From contig CAVYNH010000007.1 of NCBI GenBank assembly GCA_963769885.1, positions 224,001 through 288,000 of the forward strand: a stretch of DNA of 64,000 nt, in the 5' to 3' direction. The notes beneath the pieces are model-generated. The model made no database searches, had not been told where the DNA came from, and saw only the letters and a program-made list of their open reading frames with translations. The stretch is from Methanobacteriota archaeon. GTDB lineage: Archaea > Thermoplasmatota > E2 > DHVEG-1. Positions 37,307-54,780 of this stretch are shown piece by piece. Each line of letters starts with the position of its first letter. The first letter of the stretch is position 1. The translations under genes were made by a program, and so were the position numbers.

Positions 37307-38266
37307 ATGGGAAAAGAGAAGCAGCCTGAGTCGCCGATACAAGGTCTTCCTGGTGTTGGCCCTGCCATCGCGGAAAAGCTAGTCGAAGCCGGGTTTTCAG
37401 ATATGATGACCATCGCGGTCTCGTCCCCCAAAGAGCTGGCGGACGTCGCGGAGATCGGGGAGGCTACAGCTACCAAGATCATCCAGGCCGCGCGAAAGCA
37501 GGCCGACATCGGCAGTTTTGAAACCGGCGTCGCCCTGCTCGAACGTCGGTCGCGCATCGGCTGCATTACCACCGGATCCAAATCATTCAACGAACTCATG
37601 GGCGGCAAGGGATTCGAAACTCAGGCGATCACCGAGTTGTTCGGCGAGTTCGGCTCAGGGAAGACGCAGCTGGCGCTCCAGCTCTGCCTGAACGTGCAAC
37701 TTCCGCCAGAGAAGGGCGGCTTGGACAGCCAAGTCTTCTTCATTGATACCGAGAACACGTTCCGACCGGACCGGATCACCCAGATGGCAGAGGGCCTGGA
37801 GATGGACCCCTCGGAGGCCCTGCAGCGAATCCATGTCGCCCGAGCGTATAACTCCAGCCATCAGATGCTGCTCGTAGAGAAGGTCAAGGAGCTGTCCAAG
37901 GAGTATCCCGCGCGGCTCCTCATCGTCGACTCGCTCACCTCGCATTTCCGCGCGGAGTACGTGGGACGGGGGGCACTGGCGGACCGGCAGCAGAAGCTCA
38001 ATAGGCACATGCATGATCTCCTCAGGTGGGGGGACATCAACAACGGCGCAGTTGTCGTCACCAACCAGGTCGCGGCGAAGCCAGACGCGTTCTTCGGGGA
38101 CCCGACCCGACCCATCGGCGGCCACATCGTCGGTCACACCGCGACGTTCCGTTTGTACCTGCGGAAGAGCAAGGGTAATAAGCGCATCGCCCGGCTCATC
38201 GACTCCCCGCATCTGCCGGAGGGCGAAGCCGTCTTCTCCGTCAACCAAACCGGAATCGGGGATTAA
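37307..38266 (+). CDS. radA: DNA repair and recombination protein RadA
   Basis: HhH N-domain, [46 protein letters not shown]. Confidence 0.98.
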
Positions 38267-47849: not shown

Positions 47850-50393
47850 ATGAACCACTTACCACTCATCCTCATCCTTGTCGCCCTCATGGTCACACCC
47901 CTCCCACTCCAAGCATATCACACCACTCCAACCCCAAACACCACCCACACCGATGACCTCAGCCACTACACCAAACTCGAATGGACCGCCCCTACCAACA
48001 TTCTCCCCGGCACCTACCAAGACTACCTCACCACCCACCCCCTCACCGCCGCCCAGTACCATACCCCGCTCACAAGCCCTAAAACCTGCAATTACGCCAT
48101 CCTCGTCGACCACACCCTCTACCCCGACATCCAACCCGCGCTCACCACCTACCTCAACGACCTCACACGCGAAGGCTACCAACCCTACCTCGACACCATC
48201 ACCGGCGGCACCCCAGCGGACATCAAAGCCTGGGTCACCGCCCGCTACGCCCAAGGAGCCCGCGGCGCCCTCTTCATCGGCGACATCACCGCGGCCTGGG
48301 CCGATGTCAGCAATGATACCTTCCCCTGCGACCTCTACTATATGGACCTCAACGGCACCTGGAACGACACCGACGGCGACGGCGCCTACGAAACCCACAC
48401 CGGCGACATGGCCCCCGAACTCTACATCGCCAGACTCTACGCCACCACCCTCACCTACAACACCGAGGCCGCCCTCATCACCCAATACTTCACCAAAGAC
48501 CACGCCTACCGCACCGGCGACCTCACCGAGCCCTGGCGCGGCCTCGAATACATCGAAGAAGACTGGTACGATATGGACGTCAACCTCGACAACATCTACC
48601 ACGACAACGTCACCCGCTACGACTACGGTTACTTCACCACCGCCGCCGATTACCTCAACCAGATGGACCTCGGCCAATACTACACCCAAGTCTGCGCCCA
48701 CAGCTACTCAGGCGGCCACCACTTCGGCACCCGCCCCACCGAATCCGTCGCCTACGGCCACATCTACGTCTACAGCCCTACTACTCGTCTGGCCGTCCTG
48801 CTGCTCGGCAGCGATGACGGCATCGCCGCCTGGCTCAATGGAAACAGAATCTACTTCAACGACAAGTACGGCGGCTGGCACCAGGACCAGTTCCACGTCA
48901 ATATCACGCTTACCTCCGGCTGGAACAGCCTCCTCCTCAAAGTGAGCCAAGCAGGCGGAGACTTCCTTAGTTCTGCCCGCATCACCGACCCCAATGGTAA
49001 CTCCTACCCAGACATCACCTATCAGCTTAACAACCCTCAAACCCACGGCCCCGATGGGGATTACATCCGTAGCTTCCTACTCAACGGCTTCCACCAAGAC
49101 GAGTCAGGCAACTTCTGGCAGTACCTTACGACCAATTATCTCGGAGTCGATGAAGCCAGCCTCGACCCGCATACCGGTGAGCTCAATGGCGGATGCGTCT
49201 GGACCCCATACAACTCCAGCAGCCCCTACATCAATCTGGGGGCCTACTGCAATGGCGCGGACTACGGGGTCTGCTACGCCTATTGCCGCGTAAACTCAAC
49301 GTCTCAAATCAGCTGTCAGCTGCGCCTTGGCTACGACGACGGAGCCCGGGTCTGGCTCAACGGCCAGGAAGTACTCCTCGATAACCGTTATGGCAGCTAC
49401 ATCCCGGACATGACCACCGTCAATGTAACGCTTCAGAGCGGTGAGAATAGACTTATGATAAAGATCTCGGAATGGATGGGAGATAATGGCTTCAGCGCCC
49501 GGTTCTGCACCCCGACTGGTCAAGCAGTCTCTGGGCTTAGCTACGACCCCGAACCGGTCCCGGTTACACATATTGGGACGTGGTTGTTTAACGGGCCTTA
49601 TGTGAATTCCGATGTGCATACGCGTCTCTCCACCGATTATCTTAATGGGGAGGCTACGGTGGCGCCTAGCGAGGGGGATGCTGCTCCGTTCGGCAGTTGG
49701 CTGAAGGCTATCGGTGAGGGACGCCCATTCAATATCGGTGGTTTTTACGATCACGGGGACTGGGTATTTTCCAGTACCATCCAGGAGCGTGACCCCCCGG
49801 TCTTGTTCTTCAATCTCTTCGCTTGTGGACCCGGGCGGTTCACGGATGAGAACTACCTGGCTGGGGCGTACCTCTTCAATACGAGCGTGGTGCTCAGTGA
49901 TGTCGCCTCGTCGAAGAGTGGCAGTATGTTGAACTTCAAGGATTTCACGAAGCCGCTTGGCCAGGGATTGAGTCTGGGGGAGTCGTATCATATCTGGTGG
50001 GATAAGCAGGCTCCGTATTCGTTGTCGGAGAAGGAATGGTTCTACGGTTTGATCTTGAACGGTGATCCGACGCTATGCATTCCGAGTTCAGTTCAAGTGC
50101 AGGTGATAAAACCGGTGAAGGGTTTGTATCTGCGCGATCATCTATTATGCGCGTTCCCGGTGCCGGTCTGCTTGGGGAAGGTCACGGTCGAGGTTGAGGC
50201 GTTCTGTCCGCAATCGTCGATCAGCCGCGTGGAGTTCTTGGTTGATGGTGTCGTGCAGGCAACGGTAACTTCTGAGCCGTTTGCTTGGACGTGGTTGTCT
50301 CCGGCGTGGTTCCGTCATGAGCTTGGCGTCGTGGCTTATAATGCGCAGAATCGGTCAACGGCGCAGAATGTGACGGTCTGGCGGTTCTTCTAA
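47850..50393 (+). CDS. Secreted C25-like peptidase with inserted tandem beta-sandwich modules and a C-terminal Ig-like domain
   Basis: Signal peptide, LFIGDI, CDLYYMDLNG, PELYIARL, CAHS, FACG, LNGDPTL; two xDDGxxxWLNG...G.N.L..K repeats; VEFLVDG Ig domain. Confidence 0.8.
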   Translation: MNHLPLILILVALMVTPLPLQAYHTTPTPNTTHTDDLSHYTKLEWTAPTNILPGTYQDYLTTHPLTAAQYHTPLTSPKTCNYAILVDHTLYPDIQPALTTYLNDLTREGYQPYLDTITGGTPADIKAWVTARYAQGARGALFIGDITAAWADVSNDTFPCDLYYMDLNGTWNDTDGDGAYETHTGDMAPELYIARLYATTLTYNTEAALITQYFTKDHAYRTGDLTEPWRGLEYIEEDWYDMDVNLDNIYHDNVTRYDYGYFTTAADYLNQMDLGQYYTQVCAHSYSGGHHFGTRPTESVAYGHIYVYSPTTRLAVLLLGSDDGIAAWLNGNRIYFNDKYGGWHQDQFHVNITLTSGWNSLLLKVSQAGGDFLSSARITDPNGNSYPDITYQLNNPQTHGPDGDYIRSFLLNGFHQDESGNFWQYLTTNYLGVDEASLDPHTGELNGGCVWTPYNSSSPYINLGAYCNGADYGVCYAYCRVNSTSQISCQLRLGYDDGARVWLNGQEVLLDNRYGSYIPDMTTVNVTLQSGENRLMIKISEWMGDNGFSARFCTPTGQAVSGLSYDPEPVPVTHIGTWLFNGPYVNSDVHTRLSTDYLNGEATVAPSEGDAAPFGSWLKAIGEGRPFNIGGFYDHGDWVFSSTIQERDPPVLFFNLFACGPGRFTDENYLAGAYLFNTSVVLSDVASSKSGSMLNFKDFTKPLGQGLSLGESYHIWWDKQAPYSLSEKEWFYGLILNGDPTLCIPSSVQVQVIKPVKGLYLRDHLLCAFPVPVCLGKVTVEVEAFCPQSSISRVEFLVDGVVQATVTSEPFAWTWLSPAWFRHELGVVAYNAQNRSTAQNVTVWRFF

Positions 50394-50504
50394 ATTGGTT
50401 TTTATCAGTAGCGGCCGGGAATACTGCGTGGTCTGAACAACAGTGAAGACCCGCAGATGAGAGGCCGCTCGTCGTCTTTTTCTCACAACACACGTTACAT
50501 TTTT

Positions 50505-51101
50505 TGTCGCGGCGGGCAGGCGTCCGCCTGCCCCTTTACCGCGCGACAGGAGTACAAAAACTTATGGAGAGTGTATCGAGCGGCAGCTCTAAAAAGGTTG
50601 CGGGTGACACCCGCAACAACTGGGTGACCATAATGTTCCCGACACACAAAAGGTACCGGAACTTCCGAAAACAAAGCCACATCGACACCTGCACCCAGAC
50701 GTTCCACGACCTGGAACGCCTTGGGTTCGAGTTCGGCGAATTCGGATTCGCCGAAACCCATGTACATCTCCAGGTCAACGTTCCCAAGCGGTACTCCATT
50801 GAAACCGCTGAGATTATTCTCAAGTCTTACACCTCCCGGAGAATGTTCCAGGCTCACCCCGGGTTCCACAAACGCTACCCCCGCGGGGGATTCTGGAGCG
50901 GGTACGAGCACCACGAGTCCACCGGATTGACCAGCCTTGATGAATCCTCAGCCTACCTGCGCGATCAGCAACACCATCACAACGTGACCATCATCGACAA
51001 CCGACAACAACGCCTGACCGCCGAGTGAGATACGGCAATGCCCAAGAGGGCTTGCCGAGGAACGAAGGCGGAACGGGGTCATAGGGGCGCAGCCCCTATT
51101 T
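50505..51101 (+). mobile_element. IS200-type insertion sequence (tnpA only)
   Basis: Y1 transposase flanked by hairpins: left TGTCGCG-GGGCAGGC-gtcc-GCCTGCCC-CGCGACA, right ATAGGGG-cgcag-CCCCTAT. Exact ends uncertain. Confidence 0.8.
50564..51028 (+). CDS. tnpA: IS200/IS605-family HUH (Y1) transposase
   Basis: FPTHKRY, ETHVHL (HUH), ILKSYTSR, FWSGY, AYLRDQ catalytic Tyr. Confidence 0.92.
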   Translation: MESVSSGSSKKVAGDTRNNWVTIMFPTHKRYRNFRKQSHIDTCTQTFHDLERLGFEFGEFGFAETHVHLQVNVPKRYSIETAEIILKSYTSRRMFQAHPGFHKRYPRGGFWSGYEHHESTGLTSLDESSAYLRDQQHHHNVTIIDNRQQRLTAE

Positions 51102-51103
51102 CA

Positions 51104-51925
51104 TTATCCTTCCTGGACGGGGGATCGCCAGTCGAGGCCAGGGGTGCGGATGCCGAGTTTGGGGACGAGTGGGAAGCGGCGTTTGTGCTGGCTACGTACA
51201 CGCATAACGCGGATACGTTCCACCTGAGCTTTGGTGGCATCGGCTTCTCGTTGGATAAGAGGGGGTGGGAGTTTACAATCGAGGCCGAAGAGAATCTCAT
51301 CGAGGGTTTCGTATTTCATTTTGAGTTCGCTTTCGTCAGTCTGGCCAATCCAAAGGCCGGCGGTAGGCGGTTTGGTAATGATGGGGTTGGGGATGCCCAG
51401 GTACTTTGCGAGTTGGTAGATCTGGGACTTGTAGAGGTCGCCGATGGGCTGGATGTCGACGCCGCCGTCGCCGTATTTGGTGAAGTAGCCGACGAGTATC
51501 TCTGATTTGTTGCTGGTTCCGCAGACGAGGCGGTGGGTCTGGTTGGCGTAGGTGAAGAGGAGGATCATGCGGGCGCGTGCCTTGATGTTGGCGAGGGTCT
51601 TTTTTGGTGGGCGTCTACCGAGAACGGTGGTGTAGGTATCGATGATGGGGGTGATGTCGATGGTGGTGCAAGGAATCTTGTATTTTGTTATGATGAGTTT
51701 TTGGTGGCGTCGGTCGCTTTGGGGGGTGGCTTCGTCCGGCATGAAGAGGCAGTGGACATGCCTGCGGCCGAGGGCTTGGGTGGCGAGTAAGGCCACGACT
51801 GCGCTGTCGACGCCGCCGGACAGTCCGATGATGACGCCGTTTGCGCCGGCTTGGCGGACGTAGGTTTTGATGAAGTCTTTGATGACGATGCTTGCTTCTT
51901 CGGGGTTGATGGTGGGGATGGTCAT
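51104..51925 (-). CDS. nadE: NH3-dependent NAD+ synthetase
   Basis: GLSGGVDS, NIKARARM, GTSNKSE..GYFTKYGDG, PTAGLW.GQTDE, SQHKR. Confidence 0.97.
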   Translation of the reverse strand: MTIPTINPEEASIVIKDFIKTYVRQAGANGVIIGLSGGVDSAVVALLATQALGRRHVHCLFMPDEATPQSDRRHQKLIITKYKIPCTTIDITPIIDTYTTVLGRRPPKKTLANIKARARMILLFTYANQTHRLVCGTSNKSEILVGYFTKYGDGGVDIQPIGDLYKSQIYQLAKYLGIPNPIITKPPTAGLWIGQTDESELKMKYETLDEILFGLDCKLPPPLIQREADATKAQVERIRVMRVRSQHKRRFPLVPKLGIRTPGLDWRSPVQEG

Positions 51926-53256
51926 CGTTGCCAGGTCTCCAGGGATTCTTTGGTGATTTCCATGGCTTGGGTGAGTATTTTATTGTCAACGGGGGAGAAG
52001 GAGGCGCGGGCGATGGCGAAGGGGATGCGGCGGAGGTAGTCGCTCATTCTGAGGTCGCGGCGGAGGGTGGTGTTGATGTGGGTTTCGACGATGGTGTTCA
52101 TGTCTTGGAGGTAGCGTTCGACGGCGGTGTCGGTGGCGGTGATGGTGGGCTGGTGGGTGCGGGCGAGTTTGAGCCATTGGTCGTAGTAGTCGTGTTTGTC
52201 GACGGCGTCGCCGGCGCCGTAGAATTTTTTGCGGAAGAGGGCGAGGCGGTCTTCGCGGCTGATGTTTTCGACTCTGACAACGAGGGCGCAGCGGCTGAGG
52301 AGCAAGGGTGAGAGTCCGATGTCGCTGAGTGCTTGTTTGCCGAAGACCTTGCTGCGTGGGTTGGCGAAGGCGATCATGATGAACTGGCTTTCGATGGTCT
52401 GGTGGAGTTTCGAGGAGTGGACGCTGCATTTGCCGTTGCTGAGGAGTTCGTAGCAGTATTCGATGTCATCTTCGGGGATTTTGTCGAATTCGTCGACGAG
52501 GACGAGCTTGTGGTCGGCGTGGGGGAGGGCGCCGAGTTCGCCGGTGCCGAGGTGGCAGACCAAGCCACTTCGTGTGGTGTTGGCGCCGATGGTCATGACG
52601 TCGGTGAAGTCGGTGCTGATGATTTCTTTGGCCATGGTTTTGCTGCTGCCGGGTTCGCCGATGATGAGGGAGTGAACGGGCTCATCGAAGGTGCTGAAGA
52701 GGCTGGTGGCGACGACTTTTTTCATGGTGTCGTTGCCTTGGATGTCGTGGAAGACGTTCTGCCAGAAGCCGTCGAAGCCGCGGTTTTGTGCGAACTGACG
52801 GAGGTCGTCTTCGGGCAGGGTGATGCCGTGTCGTTCGTGGTCTTGGAGGTGTTTGGCTTCGAGGATTTCTCTGAGTCCTTCGGCTTTGGTGATGACTTGG
52901 GTGAAGGTCGGTGATTTTCTGGTGAGCCGGAGGATGTTGCCTTCGATGCTAAGGGCGGTGTTTCCCCAGCCAACCGCATAGACGTCGAGGGCGTTGAGGA
53001 CGGATTTGATGACGGCTCTGTCGCGTTTTTTGACGGTGATTTCGACGAGGTCGTCGGTGGTGATGGTGATGTCGAGGATGTTTTGGTTCGCGAGGATGTT
53101 GCGGGCGCGCTGGATGAGCATGGTGCCTTTGCCTGGGCCCATGCCTAGCGATTGCACTGAGCTGAGGGCGATCTGTTCGAGGGTGGTAATGCCCATGCTC
53201 TCCAGTTTCTTCCGGTCGGAAGGGATGACTCCGAGCATGGTGAGGGCGTCTTCCAT
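51922..53256 (-). CDS. Atypical MCM-like AAA+ protein with RadA-like HhH N-terminal domain
   Basis: IQGND..K, HSLIIGEPGSSKT, TTRSGL, GALPHAD, VDEFDKI, AFANP, LLSRC; N-terminus aligns with the RadA N-domain. Confidence 0.85.
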   Translation of the reverse strand: MEDALTMLGVIPSDRKKLESMGITTLEQIALSSVQSLGMGPGKGTMLIQRARNILANQNILDITITTDDLVEITVKKRDRAVIKSVLNALDVYAVGWGNTALSIEGNILRLTRKSPTFTQVITKAEGLREILEAKHLQDHERHGITLPEDDLRQFAQNRGFDGFWQNVFHDIQGNDTMKKVVATSLFSTFDEPVHSLIIGEPGSSKTMAKEIISTDFTDVMTIGANTTRSGLVCHLGTGELGALPHADHKLVLVDEFDKIPEDDIEYCYELLSNGKCSVHSSKLHQTIESQFIMIAFANPRSKVFGKQALSDIGLSPLLLSRCALVVRVENISREDRLALFRKKFYGAGDAVDKHDYYDQWLKLARTHQPTITATDTAVERYLQDMNTIVETHINTTLRRDLRMSDYLRRIPFAIARASFSPVDNKILTQAMEITKESLETWQR

Positions 53257-53363: not shown

Positions 53364-54419
53364 CTAGCCCTCGGTTTGAGATTGAAGGGCTAGGTCGCGT
53401 TCGATTGTTTGGAGGCAATAGGGATCGGCGTGCGATTGCTCTGTGTGTGCGGCGGAGACGCAGAGGCAGCCGCCTTTGCAGGAGGCGCCAAAACGACAGC
53501 CTTGACAGGTAGCGTTTAGGTCTTTTTTAGTGAACTCTCGGTTATAGGTGAAGCAGGCGGGGTCGTTCCAGATCGAAGTCAGCGATTGGGAAAGAAGGGA
53601 GCCTTCTATGAACGATGGTGGGAGGGAGAGGCATCCTTTCACGGCACCGTCGCTTTGGATGCCGAGGTTGCTGATGCCGGCCTGGCAGCCGATCCAGCGA
53701 GGGAGGATGTTGATGTTGGGAAGTATCTTTGAATTGTAGCCGAAGCAGTGGGCGCCGACGATGGGGAGTTCTTTCATGCTGTATTGGTTGCGCGTGCCGG
53801 CGATGAAGAGTGCGACGGCGTAGAATTCATCTTTGGAGAGGGTGAGGTTTGGTGGGCATCGGCCGATGGCTGTGGCAACCTGGAGTTGCCATGCGACGCC
53901 GGTGTTAAGGAGGTGCTGTCGGAGGAGAGGGAGTTCGGGGAGGTTTTGTTTGTTGACGGTGGTGACAACGCTGACGCGGATTCCCGCATCTGTGAGGAGG
54001 GGCATGACTTCGAAGCATTTTGCAAATGAGCCGGGCCTTTGTCTGATGGCGTCGTGGGTCGCGGGTGTTCCTCCGTCGATGCTGAGGGCGATCGTGCGGA
54101 AATCGAGTGTGCGGAGTTTTGTTATAATCTCTGGGGTGATAATCCAGCCGTTGGTGACCATGCTTGGCATAATCCCGTGGTCTTTGATGTCGGAGGCGAC
54201 AGCGTACCAGTCGGGGTAGAGGAGGGGTTCACCGCCGAGTAGGGAGATTTTCTTGGTGCCGAGATCTGCGAGTTCTTTGGTTGTGCGGTTCCAGATGGCG
54301 GTCGGGAGTTCCTTGGTCCGTGGTCGGCCGGCTGCAGAGCCGCAGTGGATGCAGTTCATGTTGCAGCGTAGGCTGAGTTCATACGCAACGGCAAAGGGCG
54401 TGTAATGTTTCCATTTCAT
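53364..54419 (-). CDS. Radical SAM/SPASM-domain protein
   Basis: CNMNCIHC, GGEP, SIDG; SPASM GCQAG...DGAVKGC...CQGC..C.GGC...DPYC. Confidence 0.93.
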   Translation of the reverse strand: MKWKHYTPFAVAYELSLRCNMNCIHCGSAAGRPRTKELPTAIWNRTTKELADLGTKKISLLGGEPLLYPDWYAVASDIKDHGIMPSMVTNGWIITPEIITKLRTLDFRTIALSIDGGTPATHDAIRQRPGSFAKCFEVMPLLTDAGIRVSVVTTVNKQNLPELPLLRQHLLNTGVAWQLQVATAIGRCPPNLTLSKDEFYAVALFIAGTRNQYSMKELPIVGAHCFGYNSKILPNINILPRWIGCQAGISNLGIQSDGAVKGCLSLPPSFIEGSLLSQSLTSIWNDPACFTYNREFTKKDLNATCQGCRFGASCKGGCLCVSAAHTEQSHADPYCLQTIERDLALQSQTEG

Positions 54420-54457
54420 GGTGTGGTTCACCTTTTGTTTGAATTTGTTTGTCGGAT

Positions 54458-54485
54458 GGCCGGTGTCCCTTGAGGGGCACCGGTC
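54458..54485. promoter_or_regulatory. Intergenic GC-rich hairpin between the small ORF and the rSAM gene
   Basis: GGCCGGTGTCCC-ttga-GGGGCACCGGTC inverted repeat. Confidence 0.6.
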
Positions 54486-54495
54486 ACGGTTCTGT

Positions 54496-54780
54496 TTAGA
54501 ATCGGCCGAACATCTGGTAGATGGCTTGGCCGATGTTGTCGAAGTCCTGGGTGCTGACACTGTGGTAGCGTCCTGGGGTGGCGAGGATGAGTGATGAGAC
54601 GGCGCCAAGGACGGTGACGGCAAGGATGAGCAGACTGTTGATGAGCCGTCTATTGCGTCGAATGGTGCGGTTAACTGCATCTTTCGTCATCCCTAATTTT
54701 TCTCCTAGTGTGTACAGCGTTGGTGATGTCAATCCGGTCTGGATTGTGCCTGCCTTTGTCTCTTCATATGGGTTTTCCAT
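54496..54780 (-). CDS. Small single-TM protein (94 aa), candidate rSAM substrate or partner
   Basis: AGGAGG RBS; soluble N-region, basic patch, TM helix, short C-tail. Confidence 0.75.
   Translation of the reverse strand: MENPYEETKAGTIQTGLTSPTLYTLGEKLGMTKDAVNRTIRRNRRLINSLLILAVTVLGAVSSLILATPGRYHSVSTQDFDNIGQAIYQMFGRF

Follow-up and report, generated by a model that had tools for sequence, protein, structure and literature searches.

A gene carried by a 64,000-nucleotide stretch of a Thermoplasmatota genome (contig CAVYNH010000007.1, positions 224,001 to 288,000, assembly GCA_963769885.1; this whole stretch is called the window below, and coordinates are counted from its first nucleotide) encodes a 444-amino-acid (aa) protein of unusual architecture. 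It consists of an AAA+ core of the MCM clade placed behind a double helix-hairpin-helix head, (HhH)2, which resembles the N-domain of Rad51/RadA, and a small alpha/beta domain. The protein is not the replicative MCM, as a canonical MCM is encoded separately in the same genome, the full-length MCM model fails on it (NCBIfam NF040949, 36 bits against a cut-off of 940) and it belongs to a clade of its own. By analogy with other ring motors, we favour the tentative explanation, whose chances we put slightly short of even, that it is a non-replicative DNA motor held on DNA by its HhH head. In public records the protein is annotated as 'hypothetical' or as a generic Mcm2-family helicase. A full-text literature search found no description of the HhH-MCM architecture, as a characterised family or otherwise; its coverage of subscription journals was incomplete, so that absence from the literature is not proven.

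The gene and its parts, with the evidence used for each of them, are the following:

51922..53256, minus strand: HhH-headed short MCM-family ATPase, whole gene (P0001), 444 aa and stop; open reading frame (ORF) and translation
53083..53256, minus strand: aa 1-58, (HhH)2 domain, Rad51/RadA-N-like; profile, hhalign, VIA-align
52909..53082, minus strand: aa 59-116, small beta-beta-alpha-beta-beta domain; secondary structure of models
52753..52908, minus strand: aa 117-168, two long helices linking head to AAA+ core; model helices 118-142 and 149-168
52267..52752, minus strand: aa 169-330, AAA+ alpha/beta core; Pfam MCM, alignment with canonical MCMs
51925..52266, minus strand: aa 331-444, helical lid with sensor-2 R403, ending at the invariant W442; alignments, structural match to MCMs

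The ORF has its stop end at 51922 and an ATG at 53256. We take this ATG as the right start because 23 orthologues, 70-90% identical, begin at the same M-[ED]-D-x-L. A longer ORF starting with TTG at 53418 was rejected; it overlaps the upstream radical-SAM gene and its extension is not conserved. The AlphaFold2 model of the 444-aa protein, built from a 21-sequence alignment, has a predicted local distance difference test score (pLDDT) of 88.6 and a predicted template-modelling score (pTM) of 0.77. Its linker helices match the pre-AAA+ helices of MCMs from about aa 143, and the structural alignments with MCMs begin at 137-148.

The ATPase core is of MCM type

Pfam MCM (PF00493) matches residues 157-335 with E = 1.4e-14 and 54.2 bits, the gathering cut-off being 23.3, whereas Mg_chelatase reaches 19.3 bits and stays under its cut-off of 20.3. 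All 73 chains found by sequence search of the Protein Data Bank (PDB) are MCMs, with S. solfataricus MCM as the best (7e-10), and the top 50 Foldseek matches of the full-length model are MCMs throughout (E about 1e-16). In a structural scan with VIA-align, eleven MCM representatives (P. furiosus MCM-AAA, a Thermoplasmatales MCM, Mcm2-7 subunits, M. kandleri MCM2 and MCM8/9) match residues ~145-444 at Z 22-28, with 276-297 residues aligned. The best match outside the MCMs is RavA (Z 17.3), followed by BchI (16.3), BrxL (16.1) and ComM (15.6), while the remaining AAA+ proteins have Z of at most 11; the MCMs thus lead the MoxR-type proteins by 5-10 Z units. Because of this separation, the core groups with MCM and not with chelatase, ComM or MoxR, and the Pfam and Foldseek results agree.

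The catalytic motifs are complete. They comprise I172-G174..K179, Walker A GEPGSSKT (200-207), Walker B DEFDK (255-259), sensor-1 ANP (N299), an arginine finger of the SRF type in LSRC (R322) and sensor-2 R403. K206, D255, E256, N299, R322 and R403 are invariant in alignments of the family and with canonical MCMs. The pre-sensor-1 hairpin (residues 276-289, modelled strands 276-280 and 285-289) equals that of canonical MCMs in length, and most family members have a basic residue, K/R283, at its tip, two positions after the canonical lysine.

What surrounds the core is reduced. The helix-2 insert (~233-242) is 9 residues shorter in alignment than that of canonical MCMs and is modelled as a short hairpin at ~235-241. 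The external-hairpin insert before Walker A is absent, leaving a gap of ~10 residues relative to the canonical MCM of the same genome and to other canonical MCMs. No C-terminal winged helix is present, since the lid, which closes at residue 444, is the last element of the protein and canonical MCMs continue for ~70 residues more, and neither MCM_N nor MCM_OB of Pfam matches the protein, which accordingly lacks the helical/Zn/OB N-terminal tier. An initial annotation of this DNA, made from the letters alone, had described a 444-aa protein with MCM motifs at 51922-53256, without N-terminal tier and winged helix and with a shortened helix-2 insert. The ORF, its translation and the orthologue starts bear out the first point, Pfam, models and alignment the others, and every AAA+ motif it listed is present and conserved in the family alignment.

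A two-copy homodimer prediction from the family alignment scored 0.00 and is uninformative on ring formation either way. A tryptophan lying 1-3 residues from the C-terminus (W442; window 51925-51933, minus strand) is invariant throughout the family, even in members of 35% identity; it may be a part of the lid-core structure or a docking residue.

The head is an (HhH)2 domain

For the head, the family alignment of the first ~150 residues was used as a profile and searched against the PDB. Its best match is the N-domain of human RAD51 (1b22, E 1e-5, residues 4-56), next come the archaeal RadAs 1pzn (1.6e-3) and 2bke (1.8e-3), and then NusA acidic repeats (0.02-0.06). The RadA of the same genome, also encoded in the window, served as comparator:

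37307..38266, plus strand: RadA (P0121); Pfam Rad51 6.4e-86

With hhalign, residues 8-54 of the head profile align with residues 15-65 of this RadA (E 1.8e-5, probability 78%, 36% identity), with a 4-residue gap in the second hairpin. The alignment that the initial annotation had drawn by eye is reproduced, identical gap included. Profile methods are needed here, since BLASTP of residues 1-65 against the N-terminus of the window's RadA gave no alignment between the single sequences; single-sequence Pfam on head and middle domain likewise gave IMS_HHH_1 at E 0.036 and otherwise noise.

Modelled separately, residues 1-150 reach a pLDDT of 88 and residues 1-58 form a five-helix (HhH)2 bundle, so that profile and model agree on an HhH N-terminus. 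Its closest structural neighbours by VIA-align are AF1548 (Z 9.7), NusA-AR2 (8.6), PolQ (8.2) and Rad51 (7.8, for the yeast protein, over 58 residues), with Y-family polymerases, UvrC, DisA and also SAM domains lower in the order. In AF1548, PolQ, Rad51, the Y-family polymerases, UvrC and DisA the matched part is an (HhH)2 module of a DNA enzyme, which speaks for a head of DNA-binding type. Foldseek of the 1-150 model against the PDB returned none at E <= 0.001. Because Rad51 does not stand out in score from AF1548, NusA-AR and PolQ, the fold of the head is a generic (HhH)2 by structure, and its apparent preference for Rad51/RadA comes from the sequence profile only. Two other hallmarks of Rad51/RadA were not found: residues 55-75 contain no phenylalanine that could belong to an FxxA polymerisation motif, and no RecA-type core follows the head, Pfam Rad51 matching only the separate RadA gene.

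A head of the same make, HhH plus alpha/beta with a Cys/His insert, was also seen in the metagenome protein P0211 (407 aa), on a different and much shorter AAA+ core without helix-2 insert. The head may be a module that can pass from one ATPase to another.

The middle domain

Residues 59-116 weakly resemble ACT/EIIB domains (Z 5-6) and the ArgR C-domain (TM score 0.46-0.51). As these weak resemblances are the only ones, neither fold was adopted and we assign none to this domain. A shape search of the ESM Atlas returned the family's own cluster only. Some relatives carry a B-box-like insert of zinc type in the middle domain, ~40-50 residues long with 7-8 Cys/His (P0125, P0131, P0166, P0197, P0208 and L131:2902-4398; Pfam zf-B_box/ANCHR-like BBOX, E 3e-6 to 3e-3).

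Distribution and selection

The source genome measures 2.09 Mb and is 92% complete. As the initial annotation had expected, the gene is chromosomal by its genome context and a canonical mcm exists elsewhere in the genome: its product of 700 aa is encoded on another contig, and a canonical MCM is also present in five of five relatives tested. With the family profile, the short gene was detected as a single copy in 53 of 401 sampled Thermoplasmatota genomes, distributed as follows (genomes with the gene / genomes sampled):

Taxonomic family of the window's own genome: 35/53
Second family: 4/4
Third family: 12/12
Fourth family: 1/1
Remaining sampled families: 0

The lineage holding the gene consists of SM1-50/UBA33/UBA202-type metagenome-assembled genomes (MAGs) of Thermoplasmatota. 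At the level of families, the gene is dispensable.

A pattern scan of the genomes of 185,579 species found 86 copies. All but two of the 80 loci listed are in MAGs with Thermoplasmat- names or the older Euryarchaeota/Methanobacteriota names, the exceptions being one "uncultured archaeon" and one contig binned as Smithellaceae. The latter (L131, contig JBEKVB010000026.1, labelled Smithellaceae bacterium) holds the sole copy with a bacterial label; the encoded protein has 498 aa and 42% identity, its gene adjoins a fused double ABC exporter, and it could reflect a binning error or a transfer. Holders found in a search of sequencing runs were contigs from wetland and sediment DNA, with no RNA contig among those listed.

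Sequence identity is 87% within the genus, 66-75% within the family and 46-58% in other families. Vertical descent with losses fits this pattern, as identity falls with taxonomic distance. The gene is intact and under strong purifying selection: the median pairwise ratio of nonsynonymous to synonymous substitution rates (dN/dS) is 0.058 over 34 pairs with unsaturated dS, the pairs not being independent of each other. By region, dN/dS is 0.044 in the head, 0.092 in the middle domain, 0.027 in the core and 0.076 in the lid. For the same pairs of genomes, compared across genera, the ATPase retains 68-72% identity, MCM 75-78% and RadA 79-80%, while nadE, RIO1 and KH retain 52-66%.

Genomic neighbourhood

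The gene downstream of the ATPase gene is nadE:

51104..51925, minus strand: nadE (NAD synthase); Pfam NAD_synthase 7.5e-82; ATGA overlap between its start and the stop of the ATPase gene

The order HD / eIF1A / RIO1 / KH / short-MCM / nadE is shared by five related genomes. In other clades, the neighbours are archaemetzincin and a methyltransferase, an Ig-like protein and enolase, TBP, thioredoxin reductase, or an HflX-like GTPase, and no neighbour is conserved family-wide among the clades compared. The coupling to nadE noted in the initial annotation is therefore real as an overlap in this sequence but not as a general linkage, being held only in some genera of one family. In four further related genomes, HD / eIF1A / RIO1 / KH is intact and neither the ATPase gene nor nadE follows it, which makes the KH/RIO1 adjacency lineage-specific and not functional. 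Adjacency to nadE or to KH/RIO1 was rejected as a clue to function for this reason, and with no neighbour conserved across the family the context gives none.

The neighbourhood bears nonetheless on one alternative, in which the substrate is something other than DNA and the protein acts as a MoxR/RavA-like remodeller or a ribosome-biogenesis factor, with the HhH/SAM-like head serving protein or RNA contacts. Its gene indeed follows the cluster of HD, eIF1A, RIO1 and KH (Dim2-like) in several genera and has the HflX-like GTPase beside it in another; moreover, RavA is the best non-MCM structural match, the head is structurally as close to NusA-AR2 and SAM domains as to Rad51, and the alpha/beta domain is weakly similar to the oligomerisation domain of ArgR. 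We consider this alternative distinctly improbable, given that the four genomes with the intact cluster lack the gene beside it, that MCM matches exceed MoxR-type ones by such a distance and that Rad51/RadA is what the head matches best as a sequence profile.

The RadA gene lies 14 kb from the ATPase gene and is unlinked to it. Directly downstream of nadE there is a gene for an IS200/IS605-type Y1 transposase (window 50504-51028, plus strand; Pfam Y1_Tnp 5.9e-11), and syntenic relatives have nothing at this position. The initial annotation saw no viral context, which is right insofar as the locus is chromosomal; the abutting transposase and the defence- or island-like clusters of distant relatives, described below, qualify it.

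Two further neighbours were recorded. A radical-SAM/SPASM gene (window 53364-54680, minus strand) stands between the KH and ATPase genes and looks like a local insertion, because KH directly precedes the ATPase gene in the five related genomes; the ORF listed for it is extended at the N-terminus by a long low-complexity stretch, which is unlikely to be translated. On the other side, window 47850-50393 (plus strand) encodes an 847-aa protein, predicted to be secreted, which begins with a signal-like segment and has an Ig-like domain (Big_7) at the C-terminus; its position beside nadE is conserved in two relatives.

The wider family and its island-borne members

When 1.8 billion cluster representatives were searched exhaustively, ~20 full-length clusters of 35-50% identity were found, canonical MCMs appearing only from about 1e-16. 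The family is sharply delimited, as its AAA+ profile gives members at least 360 bits and everything else at most 148 bits. A maximum-likelihood tree was built from the AAA+ region; all family members fall together in it (SH-aLRT 100) and are set apart by a long stem, 1.9 changes per site. Its nearest neighbours are other short MCM-like proteins of 346-403 aa, apart from canonical and eukaryote-length MCMs (SH-aLRT 97); this deep placement is tentative because the tree comes from a quick search, is unrooted and has long branches. Labels of the divergent clusters include Bathyarchaeota, Nitrososphaerota, Alkanophagales and Aenigmatarchaeota.

Several divergent branches lie in surroundings quite different from those of the Thermoplasmatota gene. 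In the P0141/P0295 branch, the gene is part of a cassette adjoining nadC and composed of a helix-turn-helix gene, a gene for a 340-aa protein, the short-MCM gene and a gene for a XerA-like tyrosine recombinase. Cassette contigs from four samples break at one common left edge. The recombinase scores best with the XerA type, at 157 bits against a cut-off of 220. No att site, flanking direct repeat, tRNA or circularity was found for the cassette, and a contig of ~4.6 kb has no terminal repeat. Because terminal repeats, tRNA and flanking direct repeats are lacking, we do not call the cassette a plasmid or an integrated element. In a branch labelled Bathyarchaeota, an array of BrxD-like, uncharacterised, short-MCM and DNA-methyltransferase genes ends near an Orc1/Cdc6-like gene. 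A PHROG 'DNA helicase' family, phrog_10371, matches at 1.6e-19.

These surroundings raise the question of whether the protein is a domesticated replication helicase of a mobile element, its head and alpha/beta domain making contacts with an origin or a loader and the whole being kept as a backup, restart or second-origin helicase. Exchange of MCM genes between archaeal hosts and mobile elements is well known (Krupovic et al. 2010, as cited in passages of PMC6563490 and PMC5862659). The recombinase cassette with its common left break in four samples, the Orc1/Cdc6-like gene at the end of the Bathyarchaeota-labelled island, the short MCM-likes as nearest tree neighbours and the phrog_10371 match all accord with such an origin. 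Yet in Thermoplasmatota the gene keeps a stable chromosomal synteny, sits among housekeeping genes and is accompanied by no integrase, its conservation is near that of MCM and RadA, and even in the cassette the recombinase is under the XerA cut-off and att repeats, a tRNA target or a terminal repeat were not found. We regard this explanation as unlikely.

Other divergent copies are found among defence genes. The P0290 branch is flanked by McrB-McrC on one side and a CARF protein on the other, near an SMC/SbcC-like ATPase and a MazE-PIN pair, and members of the P0278 branch are translationally coupled to unmatched proteins and stand beside a BrxD-like ATPase (a faint match) and a type II DNA methyltransferase. 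In PADLOC, weak partial matches to the candidate defence protein PDC-M37B were obtained (E 5e-7 to 2e-11), extending from Walker B to the sensor region. Together with BrxL as a structural neighbour (Z 16.1), these associations could point to the motor of a defence or conflict system, a BrxL- or McrB-like ring acting on foreign DNA, of which the Thermoplasmatota version would be stand-alone or trans-acting. However, the Thermoplasmatota clade has neither defence neighbours nor an effector partner, and its vertical inheritance and very low dN/dS contrast with the rapid turnover and shifting positions usual for defence genes. The PADLOC matches, being partial, are such as any AAA+ protein of the MCM or chelatase clade is expected to give. 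A defence role thus appears to us very doubtful.

Upstream of divergent members, we noticed translationally coupled genes for proteins of 340 aa (L045:767-1789 and L020:660-1682) and 487 aa (L050:6536-7999). Neither protein has a match in Pfam, PHROGs, PADLOC or NCBIfam, nor has the 340-aa cassette protein in the Atlas; both are candidate partners or loaders. One divergent copy lies near Lhr and an SMC-like ATPase. A second clade of 13 short MCM-like proteins (P0173, P0181, P0213, P0217 and others; 373-489 aa) was also recorded. These have full Pfam matches to MCM P-loop and lid (P0173: 1e-42) behind an unrelated N-terminus of ~100 residues, and they branch beside canonical MCMs in the AAA+ tree.

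Proposed function

We infer that the protein forms a ring, has DNA as its substrate and plays a role in recombination or repair. As an active MCM-clade ATPase, it would assemble as other motors of this clade do and would move along DNA by means of its pre-sensor-1 hairpin and shortened helix-2 insert. The (HhH)2 head would grip the DNA backbone without sequence preference, and the alpha/beta domain with the two long helices might stand in for the missing Zn/OB collar. Such a combination of an (HhH)2 clamp with an AAA+ pump would follow the logic of RuvA-RuvB, MCM8/9 or ComM. Because of this parallel in design, remodelling of duplex or branched DNA (branch migration, fork reversal or restart) seems the likeliest job, rather than origin-dependent unwinding. 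As to origin, the protein would derive from a pool of short MCM-like ATPases residing in variable islands, one branch of which became fixed and vertically inherited in the Thermoplasmatota lineage. The initial annotation had proposed a non-replicative, recombination-linked paralogue similar to MCM8/9; even with a canonical MCM coexisting in the genome, this proposal is a suggestion in all its elements.

Several observations weigh against a motor held on DNA by its head. In S. solfataricus MCM, mutagenesis reportedly showed that helix-2 insert and external hairpin both contribute to unwinding; as the former is short and the latter missing here, translocation without unwinding, or another substrate, is possible. 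Compared with Rad51/RadA, the head has a second hairpin shorter by 4 residues. Protein-protein contacts are another known use of (HhH)2 and SAM-like folds, and NusA-AR2 bound to the alpha-CTD of RNA polymerase as well as several SAM domains are among the structural matches of the head. Finally, the neighbours are housekeeping genes that vary by clade, and no gene for recombination or repair is conserved among them.

A bolder form of the DNA-motor explanation, which we hold to be rather unlikely, goes further along the same analogy. The protein might be a single-chain archaeal counterpart of RuvAB, in which the (HhH)2 clamp and an MCM-type ring drive Holliday-junction branch migration or fork reversal, recruited from the island-borne short MCM-likes. 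If true, it would fill the poorly defined branch-migration step of archaeal recombination.

MCM is the textbook replicative helicase of archaea and eukaryotes, and its N-terminal Zn/OB tier is regarded as an integral part of the machinery for loading and unwinding. The MCM core described here has dispensed with this tier, the winged helix and the external hairpin and has gained a head of recombinase type, and the selection that maintains it is nearly as strict as for MCM and RadA. Should branched DNA be its substrate, the protein would parallel MCM8/9 in a prokaryote and would be a candidate for the ill-defined archaeal motor of branch migration or fork remodelling. It also offers a minimal MCM motor for mechanistic work and an example of an island-type helicase turned into a fixed cellular gene.

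Comparison with known systems

With the replicative MCMs (S. solfataricus 3F9V/6MII, P. furiosus 4R7Z, Mcm2-7), the 444-aa protein shares AAA+ core and lid, at Z 22-28, and all catalytic motifs. It differs from them in having no Zn/OB tier, winged helix or external hairpin, in its shorter helix-2 insert and in forming a separate clade on a long branch.

Two systems, both used in recombination, suggest an analogy of role. MCM8/MCM9 (7WI7, 8S91; Z 23-26) are likewise a second, non-replicative ATPase of the helix-2-insert clade, but they keep the OB/Zn N-terminal tier. ComM (8RXD, Z 15.6) is a non-replicative ring ATPase of the same clade, with a different N-domain and a core of Mg-chelatase type.

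Non-canonical or reduced N-termini in front of an MCM-type or related core are known from the B. cereus prophage BcMCM, the M. kandleri MCM2 homologue 3F8T (Z 26.1) and the SCCmec Cch (5DGK, Z 9.2), of which BcMCM is an active helicase according to a passage of PMC2715239. Their N-termini are, however, primase-like or reduced MCM N-domains and not (HhH)2, and they are element-borne or inactive paralogues, whereas the gene described here is a conserved chromosomal one.

The N-domain of Rad51/RadA (1B22, 1PZN, 2BKE) is the best profile match to the head (E 1e-5; Z 7.8 in structure), from which the head departs by its shorter second hairpin and by the lack of FxxA motif and RecA core after it. 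In RuvAB, finally, HhH motifs hold the DNA backbone while an AAA+ hexamer pumps duplex DNA, and this division of labour may well be shared by the 444-aa protein. There it is divided between two proteins, and RuvB, a distant structural match (Z 9.6), belongs to a different AAA+ clade, so that the resemblance is one of analogy and not of homology.

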